This document shows, one piece after another, positions 9,159 through 53,121 of a stretch of 64,000 nucleotides of DNA; positions within the stretch are counted from its first letter, which is position 1; each line of letters starts with the position of its first letter. The stretch comes from an archaeon (GTDB lineage Archaea > Nanobdellota > Nanobdellia > Woesearchaeales > GW2011-AR15): positions 43,067 through 107,066 of the forward strand of contig JABHXU010000017.1 in NCBI GenBank assembly GCA_018657065.1, in the 5' to 3' direction. The notes under the pieces are model-generated. The model was given only the letters and a program-made list of their open reading frames with translations, ran no database searches and was not told the DNA's origin. The position numbers and the translations under genes are program-made.

Positions 9159-9307
9159 GCCCCTGTAGTGTAATGGATAGCACGTAAGATTGCGGCAAGT
9201 GGTGCGTCGATTGATACCGCACCGTGTACTATCGAACAGGTTCGACAGTACTAACTTTCAAAATTTGCAAAAATCTTGAAATCGGAGTTCAATTCTTCGC
9301 TGGGGCG
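9159..9307 (+). tRNA. Intron-containing tRNA, tentatively tRNA-Arg(GCG), with about 77-nt intron in the anticodon loop
   Basis: Hand-folded. Acceptor GCCCCTG/CTGGGGC has one T-T mismatch. D arm GTGT/AATGGATA/GCAC. Anticodon stem TAAGA...TCTTG is split by 9196-9272. T arm CGGAG-TTCAATT-CTTCG; discriminator G. The intervening segment forms two strong hairpins (GGTGCG/CGCACC and GTACTATCGAAC/GTTCGACAGTAC). Confidence 0.6.
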
Positions 9308-21700: not shown

Positions 21701-22295
21701 CATTGATGATAGATGTGATGATTGTATTGATCTAGATAAGGATGGTATTTGTGACCATGAAGATACTTGTCCAGATGTTTATAATCCAACAAACGTAGAT
21801 ACTGATGGAGATGGTGTAGGAAATGCTTGTGACTATGATAGAGATAATGATGGGTATGATGCATCAGTAGATTGTCATGATTGGGACAAAGATATTAATC
21901 CAGGTATGAAAGAAATTAAGGGAGACGGGAAAGATAATGACTGTGATCCACTAACTTCAGACAAAGAAATCAAAATTAGAAGTCAAGATTTATTGCTTGG
22001 AACAAAAATCATGAACGAAGACACAGCAATTGATGATAGAGAATTAAGAGTAGCTGTTTATGTCAAAAACAAAGGAAGTAAAACTGCTAAAAATATTAAA
22101 CTTAAAGCAACACTTCTAGATGAATATGTTTCTGACGAAACAATTATGCCAACTCTTAAAGCAGGAAAAACTAGTAGAGTAATCTTAAATATTCCTCTTT
22201 ATGGTGGAGTAATGCCAGATGAATACTACTTAAGAACTACATTAAGTGTTGAAACAGTAAAAAAAGCAAAATATAGTCAAGTGTTATTGCACTGA
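18741..22295 (+). CDS. Giant cysteine-rich repeat protein: thrombospondin type-3-like Ca-binding repeats + about 20 Myxococcus-type cysteine-rich repeats ([11 protein letters not shown]...DGC...C) + C-terminal CARDB-like domain
   Basis: 1184 aa. [38 protein letters not shown] (TSP3-like). Reiterated YCGDxI..[15 protein letters not shown](S/D)xxC units. TSP3-like repeats again near the C-terminus, then a beta-rich tail. No N-terminal signal peptide at the annotated ATG. Confidence 0.8.
   Translation: [1184 protein letters not shown]
19665..20048. repeat. Near-perfect tandem duplication, 2 x 192 bp, inside the cysteine-rich repeat gene
   Basis: 19665-19856 and 19857-20048 differ at about 5 nt. 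Both encode [64 protein letters not shown]. Confidence 0.8.
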
Positions 22296-39374: not shown

Positions 39375-39530
39375 ATGAAAGTTACTGTAGTTAATGTTAG
39401 ACTACCTAAAAAAATAGTAGAGTGGATAGATTCTCTTGTAGAAAAAGATATTTATAATTCTCGTAGTGAAGCGATTCGTGATTTTTCTAGATCTTATGTA
39501 ATTGACAACAGGGGTGAGTCTAATAACTGA
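39375..39530 (+). CDS. Ribbon-helix-helix (CopG/Arc-like) DNA-binding protein, 51 aa
   Basis: MKVTVVNVRLPKKIVEWIDSLVEKDIYNSRSEAIRDFSRSY is a canonical RHH beta-strand + two helices. Below the track's size cutoff, so found by eye. Confidence 0.6.
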   Translation: MKVTVVNVRLPKKIVEWIDSLVEKDIYNSRSEAIRDFSRSYVIDNRGESNN

Positions 39531-39783
39531 TAAAATTGTTAGTGTTAGAATGCCTAAAGCTTTAGTTATTGAGCTAAAAGAAGTAGCTTCAAAAAATCAT
39601 TATTTAGATGTTAGTGAAACTATTCGTTCTCTTCTTAGAAAAAGATGGTTAGAGCAAAAAAAGCCACATAAAGCTAAATTAAATCAAATTAAGCAAAATC
39701 TTTCTGGAATTTCTGATCCTAAACAACTTAGGGCATTAAAACAAACAATTAAACTTTTGGAGGAAATAAATGAGATTCAATAA
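39511..39783 (+). CDS. Second ribbon-helix-helix (CopG-like) protein
   Basis: ...IVSVRMPKALVIELKEVASKNHYLDVSETIRSLLRKRWLE. Start is ambiguous (TTG 39502 / GTG 39511 / ATG about 39549). Overlaps the start of the next gene. Confidence 0.5.
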   Translation, partial: GVSLITDKIVSVRMPKALVIELKEVASKNHYLDVSETIRSLLRKRWLEQKKPHKAKLNQIKQNLSGISDPKQLRALKQTIKLLEEINEIQ

Positions 39784-42769
39784 ACAATTATTGTCATGGG
39801 TAATTTTGGCAATTATTGTAGCATTAGCTTTCTCATTTAGTGATACAGGAGTAAACGCTTCAGATAATACAACTAATCTTACTGTAATAAATTCATCTTT
39901 AGAAATTTGGGACACAAATTTTGTTTATGTAAATGAGTCAGTGACAATATATGCTAATTATAGTTATGAAAATGGAACTATTATTGGAATAGATATTTGT
40001 CAATTTATTGGAGAATACATGTCATTTAACATGACTTCAGGATTATATTATTACATTGAAACGTATGATACTCCAGGAAATTATAGTTATGATATTTATT
40101 GTTATAAAGAAGGATACGCTGAAAAAGAGGAGTTTGGAATTATTGAAGTAATTCAAAATACAACTCAAAATGAAACAAACATAACAATCATTGATGAAGA
40201 TAATGATGGATATAGTAGTGAAACAGATTGTGATGATAATAATGCTAATATTAATCCAGGAATGAATGAAGTATTTTATAATGGAATTGATGATGATTGT
40301 AATCCATTAACAAATGATTATGTATTTTTTAATGTAACAACTAGTAGAAGTTCTTACGCTCATCAAGAAACAGTTTCAATTCATATTAATGCCCTCAATC
40401 ATTCAGATACTTATATTACAATTAATACTCCAACAAACGTTTCATATGTTTACATTTTTGCAAATGGAAGCTATCCAGCAACTCAAGAATTTTCTCTAAC
40501 AGGCATATCAGGAATTTATTCAATTGATGCAATAAATTATTATGAAGATTATACTAATACAAAATCTGTAAATTTTACAGTATCTAATTCTATGGCAGTT
40601 AATATTGTAACAAATAAAAATACTATAGAATTAGGTGAATCAATTAATTTTAGGGCAGAAATTTCCGGAAACATTGGTGAAGCAAATCTTATTTGGAATA
40701 TGGATGATGGAAATGAAGAATATGATACTGTTTTTGATTATACATATGATAATCCAGGAACTTATAATATTGTTTTAATTGTAACAGATCAAGGAGGAAA
40801 CCAAGTAATTAAAACTAAACAAATAGTAGTTAATCCAAAATATTTCTTAGAAGTAAAAGTAGTAGATAATTCAACAGGAAATATAATTTTGAATTCAACA
40901 GTTGAATTAGATAATGATGAAAAAGAAGTAAATTTATCAGGAAAAGTTGAATATGAAGTAACAAATATTACTTATAATTTAGAAGTGTTTGCAGAAGGGT
41001 ATTATAGTTATGATGAAAATATAAAAATCAATAAATCTCTTGATTTTATAGTTAAACTAGTTAAAAATCCTAGTGATATAATTCCCTCAGTCTCTTTAAT
41101 ATCTCCAGGAAATAATTCTGATGTTTCAAATCCAGATTTTAGATTTAAGTTTACAGACAATGGCAAAGCAAAATGTACTTTATATGTAACAGAAGGTGAT
41201 GGATGGTGGCTTGACGTTAATGAATCTGATAATTTGAATCCTAATACTGAATACATGTTTAAACCTGAACTAGGGAAAGGTAATTATCATTGGAAGGTAC
41301 AATGTAGGGATGAAGATGATAATGTTGGAAGTAGTAAACAATATTATCTAAAAATAAAAGAAAGTACGACAAGTACTCAAAACATAAATAGTGAATCAGA
41401 GACAACTTACAATGTAATTCAAAATGTGTATAATGTGATTCCAGATTTTGACACTTATAGTCCAGATGAGAAGAAGATTGCAGAATATCTTAAAATGGAT
41501 GTTCTAATAAAAGATGCTCAAAGAAAATTAGAAATGGCTAATAGAGATCTTTTTAATTTACGAAACGAACCCGACACCCAATCAATAATTGACAAAAGAG
41601 ATGTAATCTATAATGACATTGATAAAATTAAGGATGATACACCTTTATCTGTTAGTGTAATAGACAAGGCAGATTTTGTAAAATATCCAACAGATGAAGA
41701 ACTAGAAAAATTATTTGAAGATTATATAGCATTAAAAGGAATAGAATTAAGCAAAAGTCAAAGAACCAGTCTTCTTGAGAAAAATAAACTTTTACAAAAA
41801 AAAGTTAGTGTTAGAACTTTGGCTTATTTAGTAGAAATTCAATATATTTCTGGAAGAAGCGAAGAAATAACATTAGTTTCTAGAATTTTAAGTACTGATG
41901 AAACTGCAACAGATATTATGTTTGTAGAATTTGTACCTAAAGATTTAATTGAAAGCGTAAATGAAATTGTGTTTATAACACCTGTAGATAATATTTTACA
42001 AGAGGATCCTGTATTTGAAATTCAACTAAATAAAGGAAAAGAATTTTTATATTATGTTAAAGAAACAATTGAACTAGATAAAATTCCTAAAATAGATATT
42101 GCGGCAATTAGTACAATAATAACACAACAAGATTCAAAATTAACAGGTTTTGTAGTATTTGATAATTTAGGTTTTTCAGAGTCAAATACTAAAATATTTA
42201 TAATTCAAATGATAGTTGTGTTTATACTACTCGGAGTATATTTATTTTTTTATTTTACTTCAGGATCTCAATTTACACTACCTAGTTTTAGTTTTAATTT
42301 TTTGAAAAAATCAAGTCCTGTAAGTCCAGTTGCAAATTATGGATCCACTAAAATTAAAGAAGTAGTTTATAAACCAGCTGTTCAAGAATCAGTTGTATCA
42401 AATATTCCATTGGATGAAGCACATAAAATTGAATACATGATTCAAGTTATTGGTAAAGCTCATGCATTACTTAATGTAGATTTAGAAAAAGCAGCATTAT
42501 ATTATCACGAGGTTAAGTTCTTATATGAATTTTTACCTAAAGGTGATCAAGATCATGTACATAATAAAGTAATTAATTTAGCAGATGAACTTAATTTAAA
42601 ACATGTTCAAAAATTAGTAGATAAAGCTGTAATTGAATTAGCTCATAATAATAAGGATAATGCTCATGAAATTTATGATCATATTGTTGAAGAATTTGAA
42701 AAATTATCAGAAAGTCACAAACAAAAAGTTTACAAAAAATGCTGTGAAATAGCACTCCACTTAAAATGA
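39770..42769 (+). CDS. 999-aa surface glycoprotein: signal peptide, sequon-saturated ectodomain with PKD-like domain, TM helix, about 180-aa cytoplasmic tail
   Basis: MRFNKQLLSWVILAIIVALAFSFS signal. PKD-like block ...IWNMDDGNEEYDTVFDYTYDNPGTYNIVLIVTDQGGNQ. TM IFIIQMIVVFILLGVYLFFYF. Confidence 0.7.
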   Translation: MRFNKQLLSWVILAIIVALAFSFSDTGVNASDNTTNLTVINSSLEIWDTNFVYVNESVTIYANYSYENGTIIGIDICQFIGEYMSFNMTSGLYYYIETYDTPGNYSYDIYCYKEGYAEKEEFGIIEVIQNTTQNETNITIIDEDNDGYSSETDCDDNNANINPGMNEVFYNGIDDDCNPLTNDYVFFNVTTSRSSYAHQETVSIHINALNHSDTYITINTPTNVSYVYIFANGSYPATQEFSLTGISGIYSIDAINYYEDYTNTKSVNFTVSNSMAVNIVTNKNTIELGESINFRAEISGNIGEANLIWNMDDGNEEYDTVFDYTYDNPGTYNIVLIVTDQGGNQVIKTKQIVVNPKYFLEVKVVDNSTGNIILNSTVELDNDEKEVNLSGKVEYEVTNITYNLEVFAEGYYSYDENIKINKSLDFIVKLVKNPSDIIPSVSLISPGNNSDVSNPDFRFKFTDNGKAKCTLYVTEGDGWWLDVNESDNLNPNTEYMFKPELGKGNYHWKVQCRDEDDNVGSSKQYYLKIKESTTSTQNINSESETTYNVIQNVYNVIPDFDTYSPDEKKIAEYLKMDVLIKDAQRKLEMANRDLFNLRNEPDTQSIIDKRDVIYNDIDKIKDDTPLSVSVIDKADFVKYPTDEELEKLFEDYIALKGIELSKSQRTSLLEKNKLLQKKVSVRTLAYLVEIQYISGRSEEITLVSRILSTDETATDIMFVEFVPKDLIESVNEIVFITPVDNILQEDPVFEIQLNKGKEFLYYVKETIELDKIPKIDIAAISTIITQQDSKLTGFVVFDNLGFSESNTKIFIIQMIVVFILLGVYLFFYFTSGSQFTLPSFSFNFLKKSSPVSPVANYGSTKIKEVVYKPAVQESVVSNIPLDEAHKIEYMIQVIGKAHALLNVDLEKAALYYHEVKFLYEFLPKGDQDHVHNKVINLADELNLKHVQKLVDKAVIELAHNNKDNAHEIYDHIVEEFEKLSESHKQKVYKKCCEIALHLK

Positions 42770-45700
42770 CAAAGAAAAAAACTAAAATTGACATAGACAC
42801 AATTTTAATGAATGTTTTAGTAGTTTTACTTATCTTAATTTCAACTATTTCATTAGTAATTATAAGAGATTATGTGGGGATGGTTGCTTCACATGGTGCA
42901 AGGGGAGGAAGAATAACTGAAATAAATGTTGTTCATCAGGCACCAGCCACAATTTGGAATGGAATATTTGGAATTGCAATTCAAGCAGCATTGGATACTC
43001 CTTGGTATGTATTTGCGAATAATGGAGAAGTATCTGAACTTAACCCTATTTATCCTTGTTTTGAAATTGATAAAGTTCATGAAATTTATTCCACAATTTT
43101 AAATGAAACAGAACTTATATGGGCAAATGTTACAGTTGGAAATACAACTATGTTGGATAACTGGGTAGGAATTTTATCAAATGATACCATGTCAGCAACA
43201 CAGACATTTAATGACACAATTTCTGTAGAGTTAGGTAATGTTACTTTTAGTAATGTTCCTGCTATTTACATGAAAGAATATAATGAACCAAATAGTACAG
43301 AGTTTCCAGTAGGAATTTTACAATACAATGGAACACCAATTATGGTTACACTAATTAACACAGATTACATAACTGGATTTAGACCTGATAAATTAGTGAA
43401 CTATGAAATGATGGTTCCAGTACCATTTAATTCAACAAATTTAAAGTATTATTTATATGTAGATCCTTATGATACTTGTCCTTATGGTTCAGGTGGATCA
43501 GCAGAAGAAATAGGAAGAGGAGAAGTATATGGATATGTAACGGATACGGATACAGGTCAATTTTTAGAAAATACTTTAGTTGCAATTGATGGAAAAATAT
43601 ATGTTACAAGTTCAGATGGATATTATAATATTTCTGAGGTGGCTGAAGGTGAACGATATATAGTTGCAACAAAGCTTGGATTTGGAAACTATGTTAGAAA
43701 TTTAACAATTGTTGAAGATGTTTCTTTAGAACATAATATTTCCATGGATATTGTATTTGATCAATCGTTTACTGGGACAGGTTCAGGAGTAGGAACTGGT
43801 GTAGACGATCCAGGAACAAAAACTAAATCAGGAGATGGTCCTGGTATAGGTCCTGGTATAGGTCCTGGTATAGGTCCATTTATTGAAAAACCAGAAAATA
43901 TTGGTGTTGATAATTGGATGTCTCTAGACCGACTTAAGAAAAGAATTAGATTAAATAATTTTTTTACTGAACATTTACTTGTGTTTAGTTTTAGATCTGA
44001 ACCTGCAGAAGTGAAAATTCAAATAACAGGTGACGCTGCAGAAATAATTGAACTTTCAGACACCTCTGCAACAATTGAACAAAATGAGTATGCAAATTTT
44101 TCAGTAAGAGGGTATGGTTTAGAAGAAGGTCAGTATAATGGGGAAATTGTAGTTAGTGGGGATTTTAATGGGACAATTCCAATTGAAATTACAGTTAGTG
44201 ATGAAGAAAGATTACCTGTAGAAGCACTTTTAATTCAATTAGATGTATTAACAAGAAGACCTCTTCCAGGAAAGAACTTTAAATTTAGTGTGAACCTTCA
44301 AAATTTACTTATTGATGAGAGATATGATGTAAGATTAGATTATTATTTAAGAGGTATTGAAAGTGAAACAGCTAATAATACATTATATATAGGAAATGAG
44401 ACTGTAAGCTTAAGAACAACAGAAACAGTTATTGAAGAATTTGTAATTCCGTCTGAATGGCCTAAAGGTGATTATTTCTTAATTATAGAAGCAAATTATT
44501 TTGATATGTATTCAAGAACTACAACAGTTTTTGAACTATTTGAGCCAATTCAAAATTACAAAGTATTTGGATTAGTTGAACTTTGGAAAGTATTAACTGT
44601 TTTAGGAGTTTTAGCTTTTATTCTTGGTTTAGTTTTGTATATTAGACGTGAAATTAATAAAAGAAAAAGATTCCATGCAAAAGTAGAATATAAATTACTT
44701 CCAAAAAAAGGACCTAGGTCATTATATGTAGGAAAAATCGCTGAAACAGAAAATGATACATATTTTGATATGGATAAATTAACAGTCCATAGTATTGTTG
44801 CAGGATCAACAGGAGGAGGTAAATCTATTTCTGCTCAAGTAATAATTGAAGAATGTTTAATGAAGGATGTAGCAGTTATTGTTATTGATCCTACAGCACA
44901 ATGGTCTGGAATGTTAAGAAAATGTCAAGATCAAAAAATGATGTCTTATTATCCTAGATTTCATTTAACAAAAAAAAGTTCTAGAGCATTTAATGGAAAT
45001 GTTAGAGCTATTATGAATCCACTTGAAAAAGTAGATTTACTTAAATTTTGGAAACCTGGAGAAATTCAAGTTATTACAACAAGTACTCTTGATCCAAAAG
45101 GCATGGATATTTTTGTTGCAAATACAGTTAGACAAGTTTTCAAATCAAATCTAAAAGAGTATAGGGGTTTACGATTTATGATGGTTTATGATGAAGTTCA
45201 CAGATTGCTACCTAAATTTGGTGGTACTGGAGAAGGATTTGTTCAAATTGAAAGGGCTTGTAGGGAATTTAGAAAGTGGGGTATAGGCGTTATGCTTATT
45301 TCACAGGTTTTAGCAGACTTCGTTGGACAAATTAAAGCAAACATTAACACTGAAGTACAAATGAAAACAAGAGATGAAAGTGATTTAGCTAGAATTAAGG
45401 ATAAATATGGAGCATCATTTATTCAAGAACTTGTTAAATCTCCAGTAGGAAGTGGCATGGTTCAAAACTCATCATGGAATCGAGGTTTACCTTATTATGT
45501 TACTTTTAGACCAATTTTACATAGTGTTGTAAGATTAAGTGATGAAGAACTTGAAAAATATAACAAATATAATTTGATTGCAGAAGACCTTGAATTTCAA
45601 TTAGATCAATTGGAAGAAACAGGTAAAGATGTGTTTGATTTAAGACTTGAATTAAAATTATCAGTTGATAAAATAAAACAAGGCGGTTTTAATATGGTTG

Positions 45701-46866
45701 AAATTTATTTAGAAGGATTAAAACCACGAATTGAAAAAATATGGAAAGATTTAGGCCAAGAACCTAAACATAAAGAAGTAGAACTTGTTAGTGAAAAAGA
45801 ATTAAAAGCGTCTATTGATGAAGCAGAATCTGAAAGTAAAAAAGCTAAAGAAGCTGCAGCTTCAGCAGTAAGTGGTGATGAAGAGGAAGGTGCAAAGTCT
45901 CTAGGATTAAATGATGATGTAGCACCAGATCAAATGTTAAAATTAGTTAATGGAACACTTGTCATTAAGTTAAAAGCATTGCTTGATGAAGTTAAAGTGT
46001 TAAAAGAACCAGAATTTAAAACTCATGTGGATGAAGGAAAAAACGATTTATCAGATTGGATTAGAACAGCTATAGGAAGTGATGCTTGGGCAGATTTAGC
46101 AGATCCAATTTTAACGAAAGGGGATTATATTAAATTTTTAGAAGCACTTGATTCAGGTAAAGAAAAAACATTTAAACCAACAACGCCAAGAAAAGAGCCT
46201 TATTCTAGTAAAAAAGAAGTTCCTGTTGAAGAGAAAAAAGAGGATGTTAAGGGAGAAGGAAAAGAAGAATCTAAGGAAGATAAAAACGAGGAATCTAAAT
46301 CTGATGAAATAAAAAAAACAGAAACTAATTCTGAAGAAAAAGTTCAAGAAACAAGTAGTCAGGAAGAAAAAAAAGAAGATGAATCAAATCTAAATAAGAA
46401 TCAAGAGATTCAATCTGAAAATAAAGAGCAAGAGCTTAAACTTGCACAAAATAATGAAAATCAAAAAAGTAATGAATCTCAAGAAGAGCAAAAAGGAACA
46501 AATTTTGATTTGAATGAAGTTAGACAAAAACTAGCATCATTACAAAACTCAGAGGAGAAAATAAATTATTTATTAGAATTAATAAATAAAAATCCAAATA
46601 ATAATGATTTATTGTTTTCATTAGCATCAGAATATCATAGAGCTCAAAAATATGATGAAGCTGAAATTAATTATAAAAAAATTTTAGAAAGAGATTCTGG
46701 AAATTTCAAAGTTATGTATTATTTGGCAAGTTTATATAGCACTATGAAAAAATATGATGAAGCTCTTGAATTGTTTAATAAGGTTAAAGCAATTAAACCA
46801 GATTATCAAAAGGTACAACAATATTTAGATTCAATAAATAAAATAAAACAAAAGGCAACACAATGA
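42766..46866 (+). CDS. 1366-aa membrane protein: N-terminal TM, extracellular CarboxypepD_reg-like domain + (GPGI)n, second TM, cytoplasmic HerA/FtsK-type (DUF87) P-loop ATPase, E/K-rich linker, C-terminal TPR repeats
   Basis: ATGA overlap with the upstream gene. GYVTDTDTGQFLENTLVAIDGKIYVTSSDGYYNISEV (CarboxypepD_reg-like). Walker A HSIVAGSTGGGKSISAQVIIEECLMKDVAVIVIDPTAQW. Walker B MMVYDEVHRL. ...GVMLISQ. TPR: LLFSLASEYHRAQKYDEAEINYKKILE... / YYLASLYSTMKKYDEALELFNKV. Confidence 0.7.
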   Translation: MTKKKTKIDIDTILMNVLVVLLILISTISLVIIRDYVGMVASHGARGGRITEINVVHQAPATIWNGIFGIAIQAALDTPWYVFANNGEVSELNPIYPCFEIDKVHEIYSTILNETELIWANVTVGNTTMLDNWVGILSNDTMSATQTFNDTISVELGNVTFSNVPAIYMKEYNEPNSTEFPVGILQYNGTPIMVTLINTDYITGFRPDKLVNYEMMVPVPFNSTNLKYYLYVDPYDTCPYGSGGSAEEIGRGEVYGYVTDTDTGQFLENTLVAIDGKIYVTSSDGYYNISEVAEGERYIVATKLGFGNYVRNLTIVEDVSLEHNISMDIVFDQSFTGTGSGVGTGVDDPGTKTKSGDGPGIGPGIGPGIGPFIEKPENIGVDNWMSLDRLKKRIRLNNFFTEHLLVFSFRSEPAEVKIQITGDAAEIIELSDTSATIEQNEYANFSVRGYGLEEGQYNGEIVVSGDFNGTIPIEITVSDEERLPVEALLIQLDVLTRRPLPGKNFKFSVNLQNLLIDERYDVRLDYYLRGIESETANNTLYIGNETVSLRTTETVIEEFVIPSEWPKGDYFLIIEANYFDMYSRTTTVFELFEPIQNYKVFGLVELWKVLTVLGVLAFILGLVLYIRREINKRKRFHAKVEYKLLPKKGPRSLYVGKIAETENDTYFDMDKLTVHSIVAGSTGGGKSISAQVIIEECLMKDVAVIVIDPTAQWSGMLRKCQDQKMMSYYPRFHLTKKSSRAFNGNVRAIMNPLEKVDLLKFWKPGEIQVITTSTLDPKGMDIFVANTVRQVFKSNLKEYRGLRFMMVYDEVHRLLPKFGGTGEGFVQIERACREFRKWGIGVMLISQVLADFVGQIKANINTEVQMKTRDESDLARIKDKYGASFIQELVKSPVGSGMVQNSSWNRGLPYYVTFRPILHSVVRLSDEELEKYNKYNLIAEDLEFQLDQLEETGKDVFDLRLELKLSVDKIKQGGFNMVEIYLEGLKPRIEKIWKDLGQEPKHKEVELVSEKELKASIDEAESESKKAKEAAASAVSGDEEEGAKSLGLNDDVAPDQMLKLVNGTLVIKLKALLDEVKVLKEPEFKTHVDEGKNDLSDWIRTAIGSDAWADLADPILTKGDYIKFLEALDSGKEKTFKPTTPRKEPYSSKKEVPVEEKKEDVKGEGKEESKEDKNEESKSDEIKKTETNSEEKVQETSSQEEKKEDESNLNKNQEIQSENKEQELKLAQNNENQKSNESQEEQKGTNFDLNEVRQKLASLQNSEEKINYLLELINKNPNNNDLLFSLASEYHRAQKYDEAEINYKKILERDSGNFKVMYYLASLYSTMKKYDEALELFNKVKAIKPDYQKVQQYLDSINKIKQKATQ

Positions 46867-47702
46867 TACCTAAAATTTCACCTACACATTATTTTAAACT
46901 TAGTAATGGTCAAATTATTAAACATATTAGTGAGTTGCCAGACTCTATAGATCGAATGCCCGTTGAATTGTTTAATGAGTATGTTAATTATAATAAGAAT
47001 GATTTTGCTAAATGGGCATATGATGTTTTTAGGTTTAAAGATTTAGCAATATTATTAAAAAGTGTAAAATCCAAAGAAGAATCTTCAAGAATACTTAGAG
47101 CATATTTACAAAAAAAATCTCAAAATTATAAAATATTAAATTCTCAAGAAGTAATTCAAATAAAAAAACAAGAATCTAAAGAAATTTCACAAAACAAAAC
47201 AGAACAGGAACCAAAAAGATATACCTGGAATTCACAAAAACCAATTAAAGTTCAAGAAAAAAAAGAAATAATTGAACCAGTATCAAAAAAAGAGATAATT
47301 CAAAAAGTTGTGATTGAAGAAAAAAATGTTCAACATAATGTAACGCAAAAAAACGTTTCTGAAGCAGATAAATATTTTGATGAAAATCCTGTGTTAGTTA
47401 GTCAAATGGTTGATACAAAAAAGAAGAATATACAATTAGAAAAAGTAGAGAAAATCGAATTTACAAATTTAGATATGCCTGAAAAAGTAATTGAATTGTT
47501 TAAAGATACGTATACAAAAGCATATGAAAAGCTTGTTTTGCTTAGAAAAAATGGATTTGACACTAAAATTGTTCAATTGATGCTTTTTAGAATTCCAAGT
47601 AGAATCAAAATCTATGAAGCTGCCAAAGAAAAAAAAGAAGCAATTCAAATTAATAGATATTTAAACGAAGTAATAGATGAACTTAATGCAATATATGAAT
47701 AA
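46863..47702 (+). CDS. Hypothetical K/E/Q-rich protein, translationally coupled to the ATPase gene
   Basis: ATGA overlap at 46863-46866; no known domain. Confidence 0.45.
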   Translation: MIPKISPTHYFKLSNGQIIKHISELPDSIDRMPVELFNEYVNYNKNDFAKWAYDVFRFKDLAILLKSVKSKEESSRILRAYLQKKSQNYKILNSQEVIQIKKQESKEISQNKTEQEPKRYTWNSQKPIKVQEKKEIIEPVSKKEIIQKVVIEEKNVQHNVTQKNVSEADKYFDENPVLVSQMVDTKKKNIQLEKVEKIEFTNLDMPEKVIELFKDTYTKAYEKLVLLRKNGFDTKIVQLMLFRIPSRIKIYEAAKEKKEAIQINRYLNEVIDELNAIYE

Positions 47703-47736: not shown

Positions 47737-48843
47737 ATGTTTATTTTCAAAAAAAAATATCCGCGAGTTGAGGATGCAGAAAATGAAAAGGATGATGATT
47801 CATTTAATCAGGAATCTCAAGAGGAAAAGAAACCTGATATGCCTGCAACAACTGATAGAGTTACACAAGCACTTTCTGCAGATATTATAAAACTTAAAGC
47901 ACAATTTGATCAGTTTGCAGAGCTTAGAAAACTTATTAATGAAAGATTTACACGAATTAATGAACAAACAGGTGAACTTCGTGGAATGATTATGGATTCT
48001 AATAGAACCATGCAAGATATGGAAGTTAAAACAGCTAAAGCCGTCGATTTGGTCGAAGCAGTTCATCCAGATAAATTAATGGTGGATGTTAGAAAACAAG
48101 ACGCAAAAATTGAAGCATTAAAAGCAGGTATAGAAAGTAATGACACCATTATGAAATCTTTAATGGATCAATTAAAAGAGATGAGACACCAACTGAATTC
48201 ATTTACTGGAATTGAGGAAATGGTGAGTTTAAGTAAAGAAGTAAAAAAAGAATTAATGGAAATTAGAAAAGAAGAAGCAACAGTAAAAAGACATGCAGAT
48301 AAGATTGAAGGTATATTTATTGAAACACAAAAAAAATTTCAAGAATTTGAAGCAGTTACAGATAAATTAAAAGAATTACAAAAACAAGTTTCTCCTGTTG
48401 TTGCTCAAGTAGATCAAAATAAAGTAAAAATTCAAACACTAGCCCCAAAAAAAGATGTTGAAAATTTAATTTCAAAATTAAATGATTTTGAAAAACATGT
48501 TGGAAATATTATTGATTTATTAACAAAAAGATCAAATGAATTGCCTAAGGAAATTGACAAAAGATTTGAAAGACTTGAAAAAAGTATGAATGATTCATTT
48601 GAAAAGCATTTAAAGAAAGCTGAATTTATGAATAAAATAATATTAAAAATTGAACAAGATGCTCCAAGAATTGCAAAAGAATTGAAATTATCAGAGAACT
48701 TAAAAGACGTTGATGTAAAAAAAATAGAGTCAGAGGCATCACAAGAATTACAAGAAAATGTTGAAGAATCTGAAAAAGAAAGAAAAGGATTCTTTGCAAA
48801 AATCTTTGGTGGAAAAAAAGAAGAAGAGTCAAAGGAAGAATAA
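47737..48843 (+). CDS. Long coiled-coil protein (368 aa)
   Basis: Continuous heptad-like K/E/L/Q composition; acidic N- and C-termini. Confidence 0.5.
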   Translation: MFIFKKKYPRVEDAENEKDDDSFNQESQEEKKPDMPATTDRVTQALSADIIKLKAQFDQFAELRKLINERFTRINEQTGELRGMIMDSNRTMQDMEVKTAKAVDLVEAVHPDKLMVDVRKQDAKIEALKAGIESNDTIMKSLMDQLKEMRHQLNSFTGIEEMVSLSKEVKKELMEIRKEEATVKRHADKIEGIFIETQKKFQEFEAVTDKLKELQKQVSPVVAQVDQNKVKIQTLAPKKDVENLISKLNDFEKHVGNIIDLLTKRSNELPKEIDKRFERLEKSMNDSFEKHLKKAEFMNKIILKIEQDAPRIAKELKLSENLKDVDVKKIESEASQELQENVEESEKERKGFFAKIFGGKKEEESKEE

Positions 48844-48878: not shown

Positions 48879-49388
48879 ATGTCAGAGTTTGTTATATTTA
48901 TGCATGTTATTATTTCAATTATTTCAGTAGTTTTATTTGTAATGTTATCACTAAGATTTTTTAAAGAATCAAAGGCATTAATTACAACTAGGTTAACTAA
49001 GGTTTTATTATTTTTATTGTTCTTTTTATTTCTTGATGGTTTTTTTAATACTATGACCTATTTTGTTGGAACTTTTACGATGTTTTATTCGACAGAAATT
49101 ATTCAAATTATATCAAAAGTAGGAGTATTTGGGTCTATTGTATTTCTAGCACATTTTGCATATGATAAAAAATTTGAAGAATTAAAAGACAAAGAACATT
49201 CTGTTCTTGAGTTAAAAGAAATTAATAAACAATTAGAAATTAAAACTCTTGAAATGGAAAGATCTCAAGCTATGCAAGAAAGAAAATTAAAAGAATTAGA
49301 ACGATTCAATACTATAGCAAAAGAGAGAGAAGCTAAAATGATGAAATTATTAAAGAAAGCTGATAAGATTGAAAGAAAATTAAAATAA
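48879..49388 (+). CDS. Small membrane protein (3 TM) with C-terminal coiled coil
   Basis: TM helices, then ...LELKEINKQLEIKTLEMERSQAMQERKLKELERF... Confidence 0.45.
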   Translation: MSEFVIFMHVIISIISVVLFVMLSLRFFKESKALITTRLTKVLLFLLFFLFLDGFFNTMTYFVGTFTMFYSTEIIQIISKVGVFGSIVFLAHFAYDKKFEELKDKEHSVLELKEINKQLEIKTLEMERSQAMQERKLKELERFNTIAKEREAKMMKLLKKADKIERKLK

Positions 49389-49860: not shown

Positions 49861-50391
49861 TTAATATAAACTCTTTTTCGGATTAAAATTAAGAAAGGGG
49901 TGAATAAAATAAAGATTATTAGCTTTTACAAATTCATAAGTTGTTATTGCTAAGCATTCAGTTACTTTTCCACCAACTTCACGTACTGTATTAACCGCAG
50001 CAACACTACTCCCACCAGTACTAATATGATCTTCAATAACTAAAACTTTTTGTCCATGTTTAAGCAATCCTTCAATTTGGTTTTGTCTACCATGTGATTT
50101 TACTTTCCCTCTGATGTATATCATTGGTTTGTCAAAATAAGCAGCTAACCACGCTGCCCAATGAATTCCTGCAGTTGCTACTCCTGCAACTACGTCAAAT
50201 TCTAAATTCTGTGATTTAATTATTTCAATAAATTGTTTAACAATTTTTTTACGTTCCTCTGGAAAAGAAATCACTAACCTATTATCAATGTAAATCGGAC
50301 TTATTAATCCTGAAGTAAAAGTAAATGGATTATTTGGTTGTATCTTAACAGCTTTTAAGGTTAGTAATATTTCAGCAATTTGTTGTTTCAT
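49861..50391 (-). CDS. pyrE: Orotate phosphoribosyltransferase
   Basis: PRPP-binding loop VLVIEDHISTGGS and type-I PRT fold; C-terminal 20 aa atypical. Confidence 0.8.
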   Translation of the reverse strand: MKQQIAEILLTLKAVKIQPNNPFTFTSGLISPIYIDNRLVISFPEERKKIVKQFIEIIKSQNLEFDVVAGVATAGIHWAAWLAAYFDKPMIYIRGKVKSHGRQNQIEGLLKHGQKVLVIEDHISTGGSSVAAVNTVREVGGKVTECLAITTYEFVKANNLYFIHPFLNFNPKKSLY

Positions 50392-50601
50392 AAGTTAATC
50401 ACCTAATTTAATTAAGAAAAAAAAATAATATATAATTATTGTTATTTGCACTAATCAGCAACTGCTTTTGAAATCAATAACCCTATTGCCGCAAGCAGTG
50501 AGGTATGTCGCACAAATCAAAAGTGTATCTATTAATAAAAATAAACTCTTTAACAAAGAAAAATTTAAATACTTTATTCAATAAAAATTAAAATAATAGA
50601 G

Positions 50602-51483
50602 GTGATTTTATTGAATAAAAAAATAATTGTTTTTCTAATGATATTAACTATTGTTTCGTCAATGGTATATGCATTTAATTTAAGAGATATTTTTACAAAA
50701 ACAAATAAAGAAGCTGTACAAAATGACAGAGATTCTTTTAAAGAAGCAACTACAAAAAGTAATTCAAGAGAAAAAACAGAGAATACAAATAGGGAAGTTA
50801 GTAAAGAAACTTCAAAAAGAATAATTGATAATGATGATGATAATAAAGAACAAAGTGCAACATCTAGAAATACTGAATATTTAGTTGAAACATATTCTAA
50901 ATTAGGAATGTCAAATCCTGAAAAATATGTTAGTGAAGTAGGAGAATTATATGCTAATGAAAATTTATATATGTTTCCTGAGGCTGAATATTCAAATGAA
51001 GAAGATACAGATTATAATTATGAAATACCTATGTCTTTTAGTGGGCATTTTATAATACCTAAAATAAAATTATTAGACTTTCAATTCTTAAGAAATGAAG
51101 AAGGTAAACGTGAATATAGGATTCATTTCATGTTACAATCTGATGGTGGATTCTATGATAACAGAGTTATGGACAATAATTATTTTGATGAATCTAATCA
51201 GATTCCTACTAGTCCAATGAATAGCTTTAGTGTTTATTTTGATGACAGGGAAGAAGCAATGATGCTTTATAATTATGTAATTGAAAGTTTAAAAAGTTAT
51301 CAAGGAAATAGTGATTTGGAAATTGACCCAGAAGACACTAAGATTAAATTCTCAACTAAAAATAAACCTTCAGTATCTGAATATGAAGATTTTAATGGTA
51401 AATTAAAAACAACAGCTTCAGCATGGGTTTATTTAACTAAAGACAGCTATGACACAATTATGTATGTTGTTGACCCAGAATAA
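50602..51483 (+). CDS. Secreted hypothetical protein
   Basis: Signal peptide MILLNKKIIVFLMILTIVSSMVYA; acidic, no domain. Confidence 0.45.
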   Translation: MILLNKKIIVFLMILTIVSSMVYAFNLRDIFTKTNKEAVQNDRDSFKEATTKSNSREKTENTNREVSKETSKRIIDNDDDNKEQSATSRNTEYLVETYSKLGMSNPEKYVSEVGELYANENLYMFPEAEYSNEEDTDYNYEIPMSFSGHFIIPKIKLLDFQFLRNEEGKREYRIHFMLQSDGGFYDNRVMDNNYFDESNQIPTSPMNSFSVYFDDREEAMMLYNYVIESLKSYQGNSDLEIDPEDTKIKFSTKNKPSVSEYEDFNGKLKTTASAWVYLTKDSYDTIMYVVDPE

Positions 51484-51492
51484 AATTATTTT

Positions 51493-52734
51493 TTATTTTT
51501 TTGTTCCATTAACAAATGTCATAACACCTTTTCCTTTTGTCTTAAAACCTTCAAAAGGCGTCCATTTAGATTTAGAAATCATTTTTTTTCCTTTAATAAT
51601 ACCTTCTTTTTCTAAATCAATTATTGTTAGATTTGCTTCAAACCCTTCTTTAATTTCTCCTTTATTTTTCAATCCAAAAATTTTAGCAGGATTAACACTC
51701 ATTAATTTTACAAATTGTTCTAATTTAATTTTCCCTTTATTAACAGAACTTAACATTAAAGGAACGCTCAATTCAACACTAGAAAATCCAGAAGGACATT
51801 TATTATATTCTTGTGATTTTTCTTCAAATGTATGAGGAGCATGATCACTACATATACAGTCAATATCTCCATTTATTAAAAATTCCCATAATGCTTTTCT
51901 ATCTTCTTTAGATTTTAAACTTGGATTAACTTTTGCTTTGTTACCTATTTTATTATACATTGAATTATCTAAAAATAAATAATGAGGACAAGAATCACAC
52001 GTTATTTTTAATCCTTTATTTTTTGCTTGTTTAATAAGTAGCATTGATTCTTTTGTACTAACATGAGTAATATGAAGCCTATTACCATATTTTTCAGCTA
52101 ATTCTATAAGAAAATTAACAGCTGTGTATTCAGCTTTATTATCTCTAATTAAAGAATGAAAATTGATTTCATCAATTGAATAATTTTTTTTATTTAATTT
52201 AATAATATCATTTTCTTCAGCATGAGCTACTATTAAAATATCTTTATTTAAATTTTTGAAAATTTTTTCAACTTTACCTGGATTAATTTCACCAGTAGTT
52301 TCACCATAATATAATTTAACATATTTCAAATCAGTTTTATTAATTTCTTCAATGTTATGTTCAGTAATTGCAATATACAATCCAAAATTAATTAATGATT
52401 TTTCACTAACTAATTTTTCTTTAAGTTTTAATTTTTCAATTGTTGTTATTGGTTCATTATTATTAGGCATATCAAGAACAGTTGTAATCCCTCCAGATAA
52501 CGCAGCTTTACTTCCACTTATCCAATCTTCTTTTTCTTCTTGACCAAAATCTCTAAAGTGAACATGGATATCTATCAACCCTGGAAGAATGTGTTTATTT
52601 GAACAATCAATTATATTTTCAGCGTTATTTAATTCATTATCAATCTTAGAAATCATATTATTTTCAATTAAAATACTAGTTTCTACAAATTTATTATCAA
52701 GAAAAACTTTTCCTCTTTTAAGCAGTAAACTCAT
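51493..52734 (-). CDS. pyrC: Dihydroorotase (amidohydrolase superfamily)
   Basis: PGLIDIHVHFRDFGQ...DWISGSKAALSGGITTVLDMPNN, later HxH/ D metal ligands. Confidence 0.8.
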   Translation of the reverse strand: MSLLLKRGKVFLDNKFVETSILIENNMISKIDNELNNAENIIDCSNKHILPGLIDIHVHFRDFGQEEKEDWISGSKAALSGGITTVLDMPNNNEPITTIEKLKLKEKLVSEKSLINFGLYIAITEHNIEEINKTDLKYVKLYYGETTGEINPGKVEKIFKNLNKDILIVAHAEENDIIKLNKKNYSIDEINFHSLIRDNKAEYTAVNFLIELAEKYGNRLHITHVSTKESMLLIKQAKNKGLKITCDSCPHYLFLDNSMYNKIGNKAKVNPSLKSKEDRKALWEFLINGDIDCICSDHAPHTFEEKSQEYNKCPSGFSSVELSVPLMLSSVNKGKIKLEQFVKLMSVNPAKIFGLKNKGEIKEGFEANLTIIDLEKEGIIKGKKMISKSKWTPFEGFKTKGKGVMTFVNGTKK

Positions 52735-52737
52735 TTT

Positions 52738-53121
52738 TTAATAATAATTTTTCTTCCCAGAACCATCTCTATGATATTTACCAAATTCTGTTACTTTTTT
52801 AGCAGTTTCTTTATCAATGCACGGTCCTTCAACACACATTCTTATACCCATTGGATCAACGCAACAACTTCCACATATTCCATAACCACATTTCATGTAT
52901 CTTTCTAAAGATAATTGACAATCCACTTTAAATTCATCACAAATTTCAACAACTTTTTTCATCATTATTTCAGGACCAACTGTATAAACTATATCTATAT
53001 TACTATTGTTTAGAACTTCTTTAAGTTTATTGGTTGTAAATCCACTAAATTCAAATGAGCCGTCATCAGTACAATAATGTCTTTTAATTGAATCATGATA
53101 TTCTTTATCCATATATAACAA
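52738..53121 (-). pseudogene. pyrK: Truncated dihydroorotate dehydrogenase electron-transfer subunit (PyrK C-terminal about half only)
   Basis: Retains ...GAKTKELLLYMDKEY...TDDGSFEFSGF and the FeS-binding CGYGICGSCCVDPMG...C..GP tail. The FAD/NAD N-terminal roughly 130 aa are absent (an in-frame stop lies 30 codons upstream). No pyrD nearby. Confidence 0.55.

Follow-up and report, generated by a model that had tools for sequence, protein, structure and literature searches.

A candidate compact SPEARE-like envelope protein with a predicted membrane-anchored HerA-clade ATPase in Woesearchaeota

DPANN archaea rely on physical contact with their hosts, and the machinery of this contact is essentially uncharacterised. 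The most conspicuous candidates are the SPEARE-type proteins, which are hard to study for their size (4000-9400 aa). A woesearchaeal stretch of 64,000 nucleotides (hereafter the window) contains an ATG-started open reading frame of 1366 aa, which an earlier note, made from the letters alone, had read as an unusual fusion of a surface ectodomain, an ATPase and TPRs in one polypeptide. Is this a genuine gene, what kind of motor does it encode, and what may the protein do at the cell envelope? We give a probability of about 0.6 to the reading that the gene encodes a small, Woesearchaeota-type SPEARE-like envelope protein whose ATPase would act as a ring motor for translocation or force transmission.

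The gene and its predicted ectodomain

The ORF lies where the earlier note had placed it, and every piece listed for it was found. The gene and its parts, in order, are as follows.

42766..46866, +: ectodomain-TM-HerA-like ATPase-TPR protein, 1366 aa
42793..42861, +: TM1, aa 10-32, probable signal anchor, N-terminus on the inner side (hydropathy and AlphaFold helix 10-32)
42955..43461, +: distal beta-rich part of the ectodomain, aa 64-232 (AlphaFold strands, pLDDT mostly 80-94)
43516..43746, +: CarboxypepD_reg-like beta-sandwich, aa 251-327 (Pfam below cut-off, AlphaFold sandwich)
43759..43890, +: disordered Gly/Pro-rich linker, aa 332-375 (pLDDT 26-38; conserved in the family)
43837..43877, +: perfect 12-nt tandem GGTCCTGGTATA x3.4, encoding (GPGI)3 (TRF)
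43912..44538, +: two membrane-proximal beta-sandwiches, aa 383-477 and 488-591 (AlphaFold)
44581..44649, +: TM2, aa 606-628 (hydrophobic 599-631; AlphaFold helix 606-628)
44719..45540, +: HerA-clade P-loop ATPase core, aa 652-925
44800-44826, +: Walker A, AGSTGGGKS, aa 679-687
45178-45201, +: Walker B, MMVYDEVH, aa 805-812
aa 833-847: REFRKWG...SQ block
45541..45870, +: helical bundle/coiled coil after the ATPase, aa 926-1035 (AlphaFold helices)
45934..46155, +: DUF5752/OrfY-like module, aa ~1057-1130
46168..46560, +: E/K/S/N-rich low-complexity spacer, aa 1135-1265 (composition)
46561..46845, +: C-terminal TPR domain, about 3 repeats (Pfam and NCBIfam)

This is one genuine gene and not a chimera. 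Mis-assembly, a concern of the earlier note, would mean that two unrelated genes, one for a surface protein and one for a cytoplasmic ATPase, had been joined at the repeat, and the sole point in its favour is that the gene contains a short tandem repeat and low-complexity tracts. However, the same ORF was assembled independently on more than 40 contigs (ENA, JGI, Logan and NCBI); the identical 1366-aa protein is present on at least 23 contigs and an allele with two repeats on 19. Full-length homologues are 37-70% identical, and the architecture and gene order are common to 79 species-level genomes. Additionally, the repeat, at 36-41 nt, should fall below typical sequencing-read length, and the junction between membrane and motor is kept, with a TM-like segment just 5' of Walker A, in 108 of the 109 representatives with enough upstream sequence. 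Thus, an assembly chimera retains next to no probability, and we regard it as refuted.

Hydropathy places hydrophobic segments at aa 6-42 and 599-631, and AlphaFold monomer models of the protein have mean pLDDT values of 77 and 86. TM1 is a probable signal anchor, and TM2 is followed by a basic stretch, RREINKRKR. The ~570 residues between the two hydrophobic helices (aa ~34-600) are a predicted sequon-rich ectodomain: residues 34-600 contain 16 NxS/T sequons against 5.5 expected, whereas residues 629-1366 contain 4 against 4.1 expected (Fisher p 0.001 for the asymmetry between ectodomain and cytoplasmic part). By this predicted topology, the ectodomain makes up 42% of the protein and not the majority of its length.

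AlphaFold divides the ectodomain into four beta domains, of which Pfam detects only the CarboxypepD_reg-like one. The distal domain matched no family in a Pfam scan; in the family alignment it contains an invariant Cys98, and an invariant Cys238 lies just past it, in segment 233-250. For CarboxypepD_reg, Pfam gives a match at aa 254-327 (E 1.8e-6) with 28.6 bits, under the cut-off of 32.3. We keep the assignment because AlphaFold predicts a beta-sandwich at this place and because a homologue (P0016) has 9 tandem CarboxypepD_reg repeats (E 6e-66), an array that appears in the family alignment as a large insertion where this domain lies. Thus, the CarboxypepD_reg-like ectodomain of the earlier note stands as a domain, but it spans only ~75 of the ~570 ectodomain residues. 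The second proximal sandwich can be aligned with a distant homologue (P0023) from aa 494 on.

The Gly/Pro linker is no peculiarity of this gene. It is found family-wide, with invariant glycines (G339/341/343/345/362/364/366), and the copy number of its terminal (GPGx)n runs differs between species. The tandem itself consists of three perfect units of GGTCCTGGTATA at 43837-43872, as described earlier except that the position had been given as 43843-43884, and a partial fourth unit to 43877 (TRF score 82); it codes for GPGIGPGIGPGI, aa 358-369. The suggestion of a slippage-prone hinge of variable length was borne out by alleles of 2 and 3 copies in otherwise identical sequence. The protein NCBI MBT7440555.1 (P0001, 1362 aa) has two GPGI units against three in the window, and an alignment of the window with ENA contig L091 over 24,101 nt has 0 mismatches and a single 12-nt gap (2 vs 3 copies). 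The two-copy allele is found in P0001, L085-L087 and L091, and the three-copy allele in L088-L090. We propose that the hinge acts as a flexible tether whose length shifts through replication slippage in in-frame steps of 12 nt. The lone change of one unit over 24 kb would then be a clean natural case of a surface tether whose length is tuned by slippage.

The ATPase module and the C-terminal tail

The expected HerA/AAA_10-type Walker A block was found, as AGSTGGGKS with VIVIDPTAQW downstream, and so was the DEVH Walker B. A HerA-type RecA-like core is present with Walker A, Walker B and Arg-finger motifs; the two Walker motifs and the REFRKWG...SQ block are intact, and they are invariant across the family. 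Pfam assigns the DUF87/HerA central domain at E 1.3e-10 (42.2 bits, cut-off 23.2), and Foldseek matches the ATPase with Sulfolobus HerA (4d2i) at E 5.6e-12. HerA is also its phmmer match in the PDB, where the best matches include HerA proteins of defence systems. Thus, the P-loop region belongs to the HerA class by both Pfam and Foldseek, and not to an unrelated class of NTPase, an outcome that the earlier note had allowed for. Hamm et al. classed the SPEARE ATPase as a 'type III restriction' domain (PMC6642349), and Reva et al. 2023 classed that of the giant proteins as VirB4/TraG (PMC10266531). We rejected the former reading, and VirB4/TraG as the nearest match, because HerA ranks first structurally. 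The ATPase is best described as HerA-clade, and in the models it appears structurally nearer to HerA than to VirB4/TraG or FtsK.

The protein differs from HerA itself, the translocase that resects DNA ends together with NurA. TM2 ends at about aa 628 and the first ATPase strand begins at aa 652; because only this basic linker of 24 residues lies between them, there is no space for the N-terminal HAS barrel. No NurA nuclease, which in HerA systems frequently comes with Mre11/Rad50, was found among the operon neighbours, and the protein is predicted to be membrane-embedded with a large ectodomain. The NCBIfam model HerA_Thermprot matches at 25.7 bits against a cut-off of 800.

The helical bundle that follows the ATPase has a conserved motif, DVFDLxLELKL..F..V.IYLE.L.P, which is retained in giant relatives, and this region can still be aligned with nanohaloarchaeal proteins. 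The E/K/S low-complexity spacer was found as described (E 24%, K 18%, S 11%); it contains an imperfect 24-nt repeat at 46228-46298. The two TPR units reported for the extreme C-terminus were also recovered: TPR_1, TPR_2, TPR_17 and TPR_19 exceed their Pfam cut-offs, TPR_1 (38.1 bits) and TPR_2 (34.1 bits) in two stretches each, the best at 1315-1347. An NCBIfam MamA-like match (aa 1261-1355) suggests about three TPRs. As 8 of 19 aligned homologues have a TPR tail, it appears to be an optional add-on.

The family and the operon

The fusion of domains in this protein is not unusual; it is instead the hallmark of a large family of archaea, most of them DPANN, in which the ATPase module forms 367 clusters (50% identity, E<=1e-30). 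Species-representative genomes contain at least 559 loci of this family. Relatives of the module are found in Woese-, Pace-, Nano-, Nanohalo-, Aenigm-, Micr- and Altiarchaeota and in Hadarchaeales. The proteins concerned are 700-6253 aa long, and their C-terminal modules share 40-85% identity with the one described here; the module always lies near the C-terminus, even in the longest of these. Some genomes have pairs of paralogues (L017, L019). By BLASTP, the ATPase is 40% identical over 361 aa (E 1e-99) to AQV86_02330 of Nanohaloarchaea SG9, a locus tag listed as a SPEARE protein (PMC6642349). It is also 40% identical (E 5e-94) to a protein of Ca. Nanohalococcus occultus whose UniRef name begins 'VirB4/TraG-', and 45% identical (E 7.5e-103) to a 5396-aa acidic protein (P0167), the ATPase of which is in turn 62% identical to a Ca. 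Nanohaloarchaea protein.

An ectodomain-TM-ATPase architecture is known from the SPEARE and giant surface proteins of nanohaloarchaea (PMC6642349, PMC10266531), the giant proteins being laid out as ectodomain, TM, cytosolic ATPase and coiled coil (PMC10266531), and Hamm et al. 2019 noted similar intracellular sequences in Woesearchaeota (PMC6642349). The protein described here resembles them in having, in the same order, an N-terminal signal/TM, adhesin-type beta domains, a TM, an ATPase of the FtsK-HerA superfamily and a helical/coiled-coil region; the C-terminal cytoplasmic ATPase is homologous and, by predicted topology, is likewise preceded by a TM helix. However, it is 4-7 times smaller, with 1366 aa where they have 4000-9400 aa. 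Pfam found no laminin-G, protease-like or toxin-like regions and no long Ig arrays in it, and it has an OrfY-like module, an E/K/S spacer and TPRs added at the C-terminus. The neighbours differ as well. A second ATPase of the same family lies immediately downstream at nanohaloarchaeal loci (PMC10266531), whereas tblastn with the ATPase module found none in the whole window, and the genes next to the ATPase gene are those of PKD, OrfY-like and coiled-coil proteins. The genes around the ATPase gene are the following.

39375..39530, +: ribbon-helix-helix (RHH) protein 1, 51 aa, first gene of the cluster (weak RHH_1 match in the identical contig L091)
39502..39783, +: RHH-like protein 2, 93 aa if it starts at TTG, 77 aa if it starts at the ATG at 39550
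39770..42769, +: PKD bitopic membrane protein, 999 aa (PKD_4, E 7.6e-10)
46863..47702, +: 279-aa protein with an N-terminal DUF5752/OrfY-like module (tblastn; weak PF19027 match)
47737..48843, +: 368-aa coiled-coil protein (55-75% identity in close relatives; 48/79 loci)
48879..49388, +: 169-aa polytopic membrane and coiled-coil protein (in L004)

The conserved order is two RHH proteins, PKD membrane protein, ATPase, OrfY-like protein and coiled-coil protein. Equivalents of RHH protein 1 with 49-50 aa are present in L001 and L004, and that of L001 has an RHH_1 match. The gene for RHH-like protein 2, which overlaps the PKD gene by 14 nt and has weak NCBIfam matches to TprA (E 0.001) and CdrS (E 0.006), has a homologue 5' of the ATPase gene in 51 of the 79 loci, and the PKD gene lies directly 5' in 67. 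The 999-aa product of the latter consists of a signal/TM, a PKD and MopE-like ectodomain with 24 NxS/T sequons against 12.1 expected, a TM and a helical cytoplasmic tail. The PKD stop overlaps the ATPase start (ATGA), and the start of the 279-aa gene overlaps the ATPase stop by 4 nt. As there are ATGA overlaps on both sides, the ATPase gene appears to be translationally coupled to both neighbours. Residues 5-90 of the 279-aa protein match, by tblastn, the ATPase tails of L001 (E 2.7e-11) and L004 (2e-7) and also downstream genes in both.

The 368-aa coiled-coil protein is the best conserved partner; its family consists only of hypothetical proteins of Woese/Nanoarchaeota. Its C-terminal amphipathic motif, KGFFAKIFGGKK, resembles that of MinD and recurs in homologues, and is a putative membrane-binding motif. 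The 169-aa protein is kept in the closest relatives only (5 of 79 loci). At two loci of the wider family (P0019 and P0023) the partner genes are absent, and therefore the function of the operon may be specific to the subfamily.

Possible functions and a model

One possibility is a housekeeping machine, specific to the lineage, for division or chromosome segregation. The protein, as a membrane-anchored FtsK/SpoIIIE analogue, would then pump DNA at the septum, with the coiled-coil partner as its membrane scaffold and the CdrS-like RHH protein as its regulator. This would agree with the spread over at least 559 species genomes, the strong synteny, an ATPase module that is 60-85% identical and the ordinary chromosomal genes around the locus, as well as with the likeness of the partner's motif to MinD's membrane-targeting helix and the match of the upstream RHH protein to CdrS, a cell-division regulator. 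However, the CdrS match is far under the family cut-off, FtsK_SpoIIIE scores 19.6 bits, under Pfam's cut-off of 24, and the Pfam scan found no gamma domain; a helical bundle follows the motor. The ATPase is nearer to HerA and VirB4 than to FtsK, and some genomes have two paralogues. Moreover, a glycosylated adhesin-type ectodomain of 570 aa, which swells to more than 5000 aa in relatives, has no role of FtsK type. We consider this reading as a whole unlikely. We rate as similarly unlikely a DNA transfer system like type IV secretion or Ced, with the protein as the equivalent of VirB4 or a coupling protein that injects effectors or imports DNA via a channel. Coupling proteins such as TrwB/VirD4 have two TM helices and then a cytosolic NTPase, a topology that is also predicted here. 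Type IV coupling proteins have a tiny periplasmic loop, whereas the ectodomain here is 570 aa. NCBIfam gives weak matches to CedD, TraD and TraB, but CedD, an equivalog model, matches only locally around Walker A (aa 662-719) with 28.8 bits (cut-off 600), and TraD reaches 22.5 bits (cut-off 366). TrwB/VirD4/TcpA and the type VII proteins EccC/EssC score below HerA and VirB4, TrwB_AAD_bind stays below cut-off in homologues, and Pfam found no VirB4 N-terminal domain (CagE_TrbE_VirB) in the protein. An all-alpha domain, tandem ATPase domains and associated secretion genes were not found, and in Pfam/NCBIfam scans of the operon and ~35 other window ORFs there was no VirB6/CedA-like channel, VirB3/8, pilin, relaxase or integrase.

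A T4SS-like role has been argued for the homologous giant proteins (PMC10266531), and CedB and CedD, which act in membrane DNA transport, are TM-anchored archaeal HerA-clade ATPases like this one and are required for DNA import in Sulfolobales (PMC11868833). However, in the Ced proteins the N-terminal domain is cytoplasmic and VirB4-like, and they lack a large ectodomain. Nor did we find a CedA/CedE-like channel near the ATPase gene, and the window has no second ATPase paralogue, unlike the nanohaloarchaeal loci. A membrane-bound HerA of anti-virus defence, like that of SIR2-HerA, DUF4297-HerA or the MADS component mad8, is very unlikely. PADLOC HerA models (E 8e-14) and mad8 (E 3.6e-13) do match, and HerA proteins of defence systems are among the best PDB sequence matches, but these matches reflect the common HerA core only. 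Pfam/NCBIfam scans of the operon neighbours found no SIR2, DUF4297 or other nuclease and no NurA, and the operon is conserved and of housekeeping type, not a variable defence island. HerA defence systems are not known to have an ectodomain with TM helices.

Our preferred reading remains the SPEARE-like envelope protein, and its most likely function is that of an envelope-spanning, ATP-driven machine for translocation or adhesion. The ring in our model is based on solved relatives only (HerA, VirB4, FtsK and TrwB). We propose that six copies would form a ring directly beneath the membrane, with 12 TM helices over a central pore and the six ectodomains tethered outside. Driven by ATP hydrolysis, the motor may thread a polymer (DNA or unfolded protein) through ring and membrane, or else exert force on the ectodomain. 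Docking of cargo or scaffolding of the ring may fall to the TPR/OrfY-like tail and the coiled-coil partner, and contact with the envelope or with a second cell to the PKD protein and the ectodomain. A point against a secretion or uptake machine is that the scans of the operon and other window ORFs found no VirB6/CedA-like channel, pilin, relaxase or nuclease. Syntenic conservation is near-universal in the lineage and suits housekeeping at least as well as host interaction, and the functional proposals in the SPEARE literature are hypotheses only (PMC6642349, PMC10266531).

In sum, our analysis adds a compact, 1366-aa form of the TM-anchored HerA-like motor, which is kept in hundreds of Woese/Nanoarchaeota species with a fixed set of partners predicted to be co-transcribed. 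It also adds a class for the ATPase, HerA-clade, which is not a restriction enzyme and does not have VirB4/TraG as its nearest match. A protein of this size is a tractable target for expression, cryo-EM and assays of ATPase activity or DNA translocation, and the defined operon can be followed in metatranscriptomes. More tentatively, the operon might be an undescribed envelope-spanning translocation system, distinct from T4SS, T7SS and Ced, with which DPANN archaea would take DNA, nucleotides or other polymers from their hosts or pass them on to these; at present this is doubtful. If it is true, the giant SPEARE proteins would have been elaborated from this motor, and the 1366-aa form would be its minimal, structurally tractable version.

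Domain organization and predicted topology

The translation of the ATPase gene contains all of the pieces that the earlier note had read from the sequence. The limits marked AlphaFold come from models built on the family alignment, one for aa 1-629 (mean pLDDT 77) and one for aa 630-1135 (mean pLDDT 86).

Features of the ATPase protein
42766-46866, + strand: ATPase ORF, 1366 aa, ATG start
aa 10-32: TM helix (AlphaFold)
aa 64-232: beta-rich domain (AlphaFold)
aa 251-327: beta-sandwich, CarboxypepD_reg-like (AlphaFold)
aa 332-375: disordered segment, the Gly/Pro linker (AlphaFold)
aa 383-477 and 488-591: two beta-sandwiches (AlphaFold)
aa 606-628: TM helix, TM2 (AlphaFold)
aa 652-925: RecA-like alpha/beta core (AlphaFold)
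aa 679-687: Walker A, AGSTGGGKS, then ...VAVIVIDPTAQW (translation)
aa 805-812: Walker B, MMVYDEVH (translation)
aa 926-1035: helical bundle (AlphaFold)
aa ~1057-1130: small alpha/beta module (AlphaFold)
aa 1135-1265: E/K/S-rich stretch, E 24%, K 18%, S 11% (composition)
C-terminal end: TPR units, TPR_1 and TPR_2 over the Pfam cut-offs, two stretches each

Hydropathy marks two TM-like segments, at 6-42 and 599-631. Between the TM helices, N-glycosylation sequons are about three times commoner than composition predicts (16 versus 5.5 expected), whereas those after TM2 number 4 versus 4.1 expected (inside-outside contrast, Fisher p 0.001). A basic stretch, RREINKRKR, directly follows TM2. Together with the AlphaFold model, these indicators lead to a predicted topology in which the N-terminus is inside, 570 residues are outside, and the ATPase and tail are inside.

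The CarboxypepD_reg assignment needs one qualification. The match at aa 254-327 scores 28.6 bits, below the Pfam cut-off of 32.3; the reading is backed by the AlphaFold sandwich at 251-327 and by homologue P0016, whose nine tandem CarboxypepD_reg repeats are aligned as an insertion at this position. The distal ectodomain domain gave no informative fold match, as Foldseek against the PDB returned only generic Ig/beta-sandwich arrays; ectodomain matches were to ciliary central-apparatus proteins, RbmA and macroglobulins, with TM-scores of about 0.15.

DUF87, the HerA central domain, is matched above the Pfam cut-off (E 1.3e-10). A PDB sequence search returned HerA proteins, with the R-E-x-R-K-x-G...SQ block aligning to IERACREFRKWGIGVMLISQ, and Foldseek ranked Sulfolobus HerA highest (4d2i, E 5.6e-12). 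Thus, the P-loop region is HerA-type and does not belong to an unrelated NTPase class. The curated Pfam and NCBIfam models for HerA, CedD, TraD and FtsK all scored far under their cut-offs with the ATPase protein, and its weak PHROG terminase match reflects the P-loop. HerA has an N-terminal barrel, whereas the window protein has no space for one, because the first strand of the core starts 24 residues past TM2. The catalytic residues are unchanged throughout the family alignments. From sequence and predicted structure, we assign the ATPase to a branch of its own within the FtsK-HerA superfamily, closest to HerA and VirB4.

The small alpha/beta (DUF5752/OrfY-like) module of the tail also opens the downstream 279-aa protein, of which aa 5-90 match the ATPase tail of a close-relative locus (L001; tblastn, E 2.7e-11). 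TPRs occur in 8 of the 19 aligned proteins, and several homologues carry a second copy of the OrfY-like module where the TPRs would stand. A profile search also gave a MamA-like match across aa 1261-1355 of the ATPase protein. The shared module and the swapping of module and TPRs mark the tail, at the sequence level, as modular; it is probably a docking platform.

A hinge of variable length

The linker glycines G339-345 and G362-366 are invariant in the family alignment, which identifies the Gly/Pro linker as a family feature. Its end has the form (GPGx)n-GP-[FY]-x-E-x-P, with a count of terminal GPGx units that differs between species. The tandem repeat of the earlier note does exist; its true site is a few bases upstream of where it had been placed.

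43837-43872, partial unit to 43877: 12-nt repeat GGTCCTGGTATA, 3.4 perfect copies

That note had called the repeat a potential slippage-prone hinge of variable length, and both alleles were indeed found. There are three GPGI units in the window and two in P0001 (MBT7440555.1 at NCBI, almost identical to the ATPase protein and annotated 'DUF87 domain-containing protein [archaeon]') and in the near-identical contigs L085-L087, which, the indel aside, match the window without a mismatch over 6089 nt. Contig L091 (ENA ERZ27237598:k141_135635) is identical to window 32766-56866 over 24,101 nt save one 12-nt gap, a GPGI unit; a further contig, L092, has the same gap and 21 substitutions. The 2- and 3-unit alleles were each assembled many times, in different projects. 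The repeat is therefore polymorphic within the organism's population, and the difference is what replication slippage produces. As the sole difference in L091 is a GPGI unit, the repeat seems to change faster than bases are substituted anywhere in the 24,101-nt stretch. As the unit is 12 nt, gain or loss of one lengthens or shortens the hinge by four residues and always leaves the reading frame intact; the repeat adjusts how long the tether is and does not act as an on/off switch. In a look-up the hypothetical 1-copy and 4-copy alleles were absent, as was the window's own 3-copy allele from the same index.

The E/K/S spacer contains an imperfect 24-nt tandem repeat (46228-46298, + strand, 3 copies, 70% matches), which may likewise vary in length; 0 mismatches were noted there in L085-L091.

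These assemblies also bear on whether the gene is a chimera. At least 23 contigs in Logan, ENA and JGI assemblies code for exactly this 1366-aa protein; 3 of them have 0 mismatches to the window over ~6 kb. A 1362-aa allele is present on 19 further contigs. In addition, 19 full-length homologues can be aligned along their whole length, with 37-67% identity. This repeated independent assembly, with the full-length homologues, excludes a chimeric mis-assembly, to which we give next to no weight.

Family, operon and surroundings

The earlier note had considered the fusion unusual. This is not borne out, as the ectodomain-TM-ATPase layout typifies a large family. When 1.84 billion representative proteins were searched in full by HMMER with aa 630-1000, 1179 clusters matched at E<=1e-3, of which 367 reached E<=1e-30; the best 150 clusters are 44-79% identical across the ATPase module. 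The module lies near the C-terminus of proteins 253-6253 aa long (median 1339); in the analysed subset of the family, 46 proteins are longer than 1500 aa and 26 are longer than 3000 aa. Among representatives with enough upstream sequence, 108 of 109 have a TM-like hydrophobic segment 40-130 residues ahead of Walker A. Ectodomains vary widely, from the nine repeats of P0016 to a beta-propeller match (P0022, 2173 aa) and Ig-like domains (P0023).

With one genome per GTDB species, there are at least 559 loci of the module. The best 80 of these, where labels are informative, are almost all from Woese-, Pace- or Nanoarchaeota, and named homologues of the ATPase protein come from Woesearchaeota, Pacearchaeota and Nanoarchaeota. 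Named family members also occur in Nanohaloarchaeota, Aenigmarchaeota, Micrarchaeia, Altiarchaeota and Hadarchaeales. Many related loci are catalogued as 'uncultured Methanosarcinales archaeon'; we took these labels to be unreliable, because all neighbours with informative names are Woese-, Pace- or Nanoarchaeota. One Woesearchaeota genome (JAAOYF01) carries two paralogues on different contigs, L017 and L019, with 71-73% identity to the window's module; thus, the family can be multi-copy.

The 'SPEARE' proteins of nanohaloarchaea were described by Hamm et al. (2019; PMC6642349): most of their length is extracytoplasmic, a TM helix lies close to the C-terminus, and the intracellular portion, which is the most conserved part, was read as a type III restriction domain; the authors noted similar sequences in Woesearchaeota, Aenigmarchaeota, Micrarchaeota and Altiarchaeales. 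The re-analysis by Reva et al. (2023; PMC10266531) gave a signal peptide, giant Ig-rich ectodomain, TM, cytosolic 'VirB4/TraG-like' ATPase and terminal coiled coil, and proposed a secretion role for these giant proteins. Over 361 aa, the window module shares 40% identity (E 1e-99) with Nanohaloarchaea SG9 AQV86_02330, a tag listed as SPEARE at 3,315 aa (PMC6642349) whose retrieved record is 625 aa, so that tag and protein do not match cleanly. The module's identity is again 40% (E 5e-94) with a 623-aa protein of Ca. Nanohalococcus occultus, which UniRef lists under a name beginning 'VirB4/TraG-', and 45% with an acidic protein of 5396 aa that has a Ca. Nanohaloarchaea protein as its nearest named relative. 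On this direct identity, we assign the window protein to the SPEARE-type family as a compact Woesearchaeal member, and put membership and architecture jointly at a probability of about 0.9. SPEARE proteins are giant, whereas this one has 1366 aa; their protease-like or toxin-like regions were not found here by Pfam, and the adjacent second ATPase of nanohaloarchaeal loci is missing from the window.

Genes of the operon
39375-39530, + strand: small RHH protein, 51 aa; short gap to next gene
39502/39550-39783, + strand: RHH-like protein; overlaps next gene by 14 nt
39770-42769, + strand: 999-aa PKD/MopE ectodomain membrane protein; ATGA overlap with next
42766-46866, + strand: ATPase protein; ATGA overlap with next
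46863-47702, + strand: 279-aa protein; 34-nt gap to next
47737-48843, + strand: 368-aa coiled-coil protein; 35-nt gap to next
48879-49388, + strand: 169-aa membrane protein; last in table

By tblastn across 79 loci of different species, the RHH protein was found at 51, the PKD protein at 67 and the coiled-coil protein at 48, many partner-less loci being contigs that end early. Order and strand are the same throughout, the sole two exceptions being reverse-strand PKD-protein matches. Distant family members (the P0019 and P0023 loci) have none of these partners. The best conserved partner is the coiled-coil protein (55-75% identity in close relatives), whose homologues in a large search are hypothetical proteins of Woese/Nanoarchaeota only. 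It has no Pfam domain, and PDB, Pfam and NCBIfam gave only generic coiled-coil noise (SMC, Rad50, SpiroCoCo). It ends in KGFFAKIFGGKK (also given as ERKGFFAKIFGGKKEEE), an amphipathic motif that we take to resemble the MinD membrane-targeting helix; most homologues have similar K-K-G-[FL]-F-x-K-[LI]-F-G-G-K-K motifs close to the C-terminus. The operon starts with the two small ribbon-helix-helix genes, an arrangement kept in relatives. The second RHH product has weak NCBIfam matches, far under the family cut-offs, to TprA (E 0.001), a conjugation regulator, and CdrS (E 0.006), a haloarchaeal cell-division regulator.

In relatives L001 and L004, UbiA-like and Pyr_redox_2 genes directly follow the operon. 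The window has an extra block between them.

49861-53121: extra block of phosphoribosyltransferase gene, 293-aa ORF, amidohydrolase/DHOase-like gene and DHODB Fe-S domain protein gene
9159-9307, + strand: tRNA, 149 nt, Rfam 41.5 bits, not reported by ARAGORN
13657-16848, + strand: 1063-aa ORF, TTG start, no Pfam match at all
18741-22295, + strand: 1184-aa ORF, four DUF4215 repeats and a CARDB domain, probably a surface protein

The length of the tRNA implies an intron, which fits an archaeal genome. The window (G+C 28%) has ordinary chromosomal genes: FtsZ, XPD-type helicase, KaiC-like ATPase, histidine kinases and methyladenine glycosylase. The window ORFs scanned included no integrase, conjugation or phage genes. 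We rejected a phage or mobile-element origin, given the lack of integrase and conjugation genes among those scanned ORFs and the kept synteny with chromosomal genes.

A model for the membrane-anchored motor

Our model builds on the topology indicators, on catalytic motifs that are intact and invariant, on the TM helix immediately before the ATPase and on the conserved partners, all of which we count as established. By analogy with HerA, VirB4, FtsK and TrwB, we propose that the ATPase may form a hexameric ring docked under the membrane. Twelve TM helices would then stand over the ring pore, with six flexible ectodomains outside. ATP hydrolysis could thread a polymer or transmit force, and the tail and coiled-coil partner may scaffold the ring or recruit cargo. 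Tentatively, the protein may therefore be a polymer translocase at a cell-cell or cell-envelope interface; for any specific substrate our confidence is much lower.

A housekeeping machine for division or segregation would explain the conservation and synteny, and the MinD-like motif of the coiled-coil partner and the weak CdrS-like RHH match also point that way; the adhesin-type, expandable ectodomain argues against it, and we consider this role unlikely. We are similarly doubtful of a T4SS/Ced-like apparatus. The topology and a proposal in the literature (PMC10266531) favour one, but no channel, pilin or relaxase was found in the operon or among the window ORFs scanned, and Pfam gave no VirB4 N-domain in the ATPase protein. 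That the protein is the HerA of a defence system seems very improbable, as generic HerA similarity speaks for it and nothing else does.

In sum, the window protein is a new compact member of a known, functionally uncharacterised family. Apparently new, compared with the literature that we found on this family, are the conserved Woesearchaeal operon, the assignment of the motor to the HerA clade, the OrfY-like module common to the ATPase and the neighbouring gene, and the single-unit repeat polymorphism.
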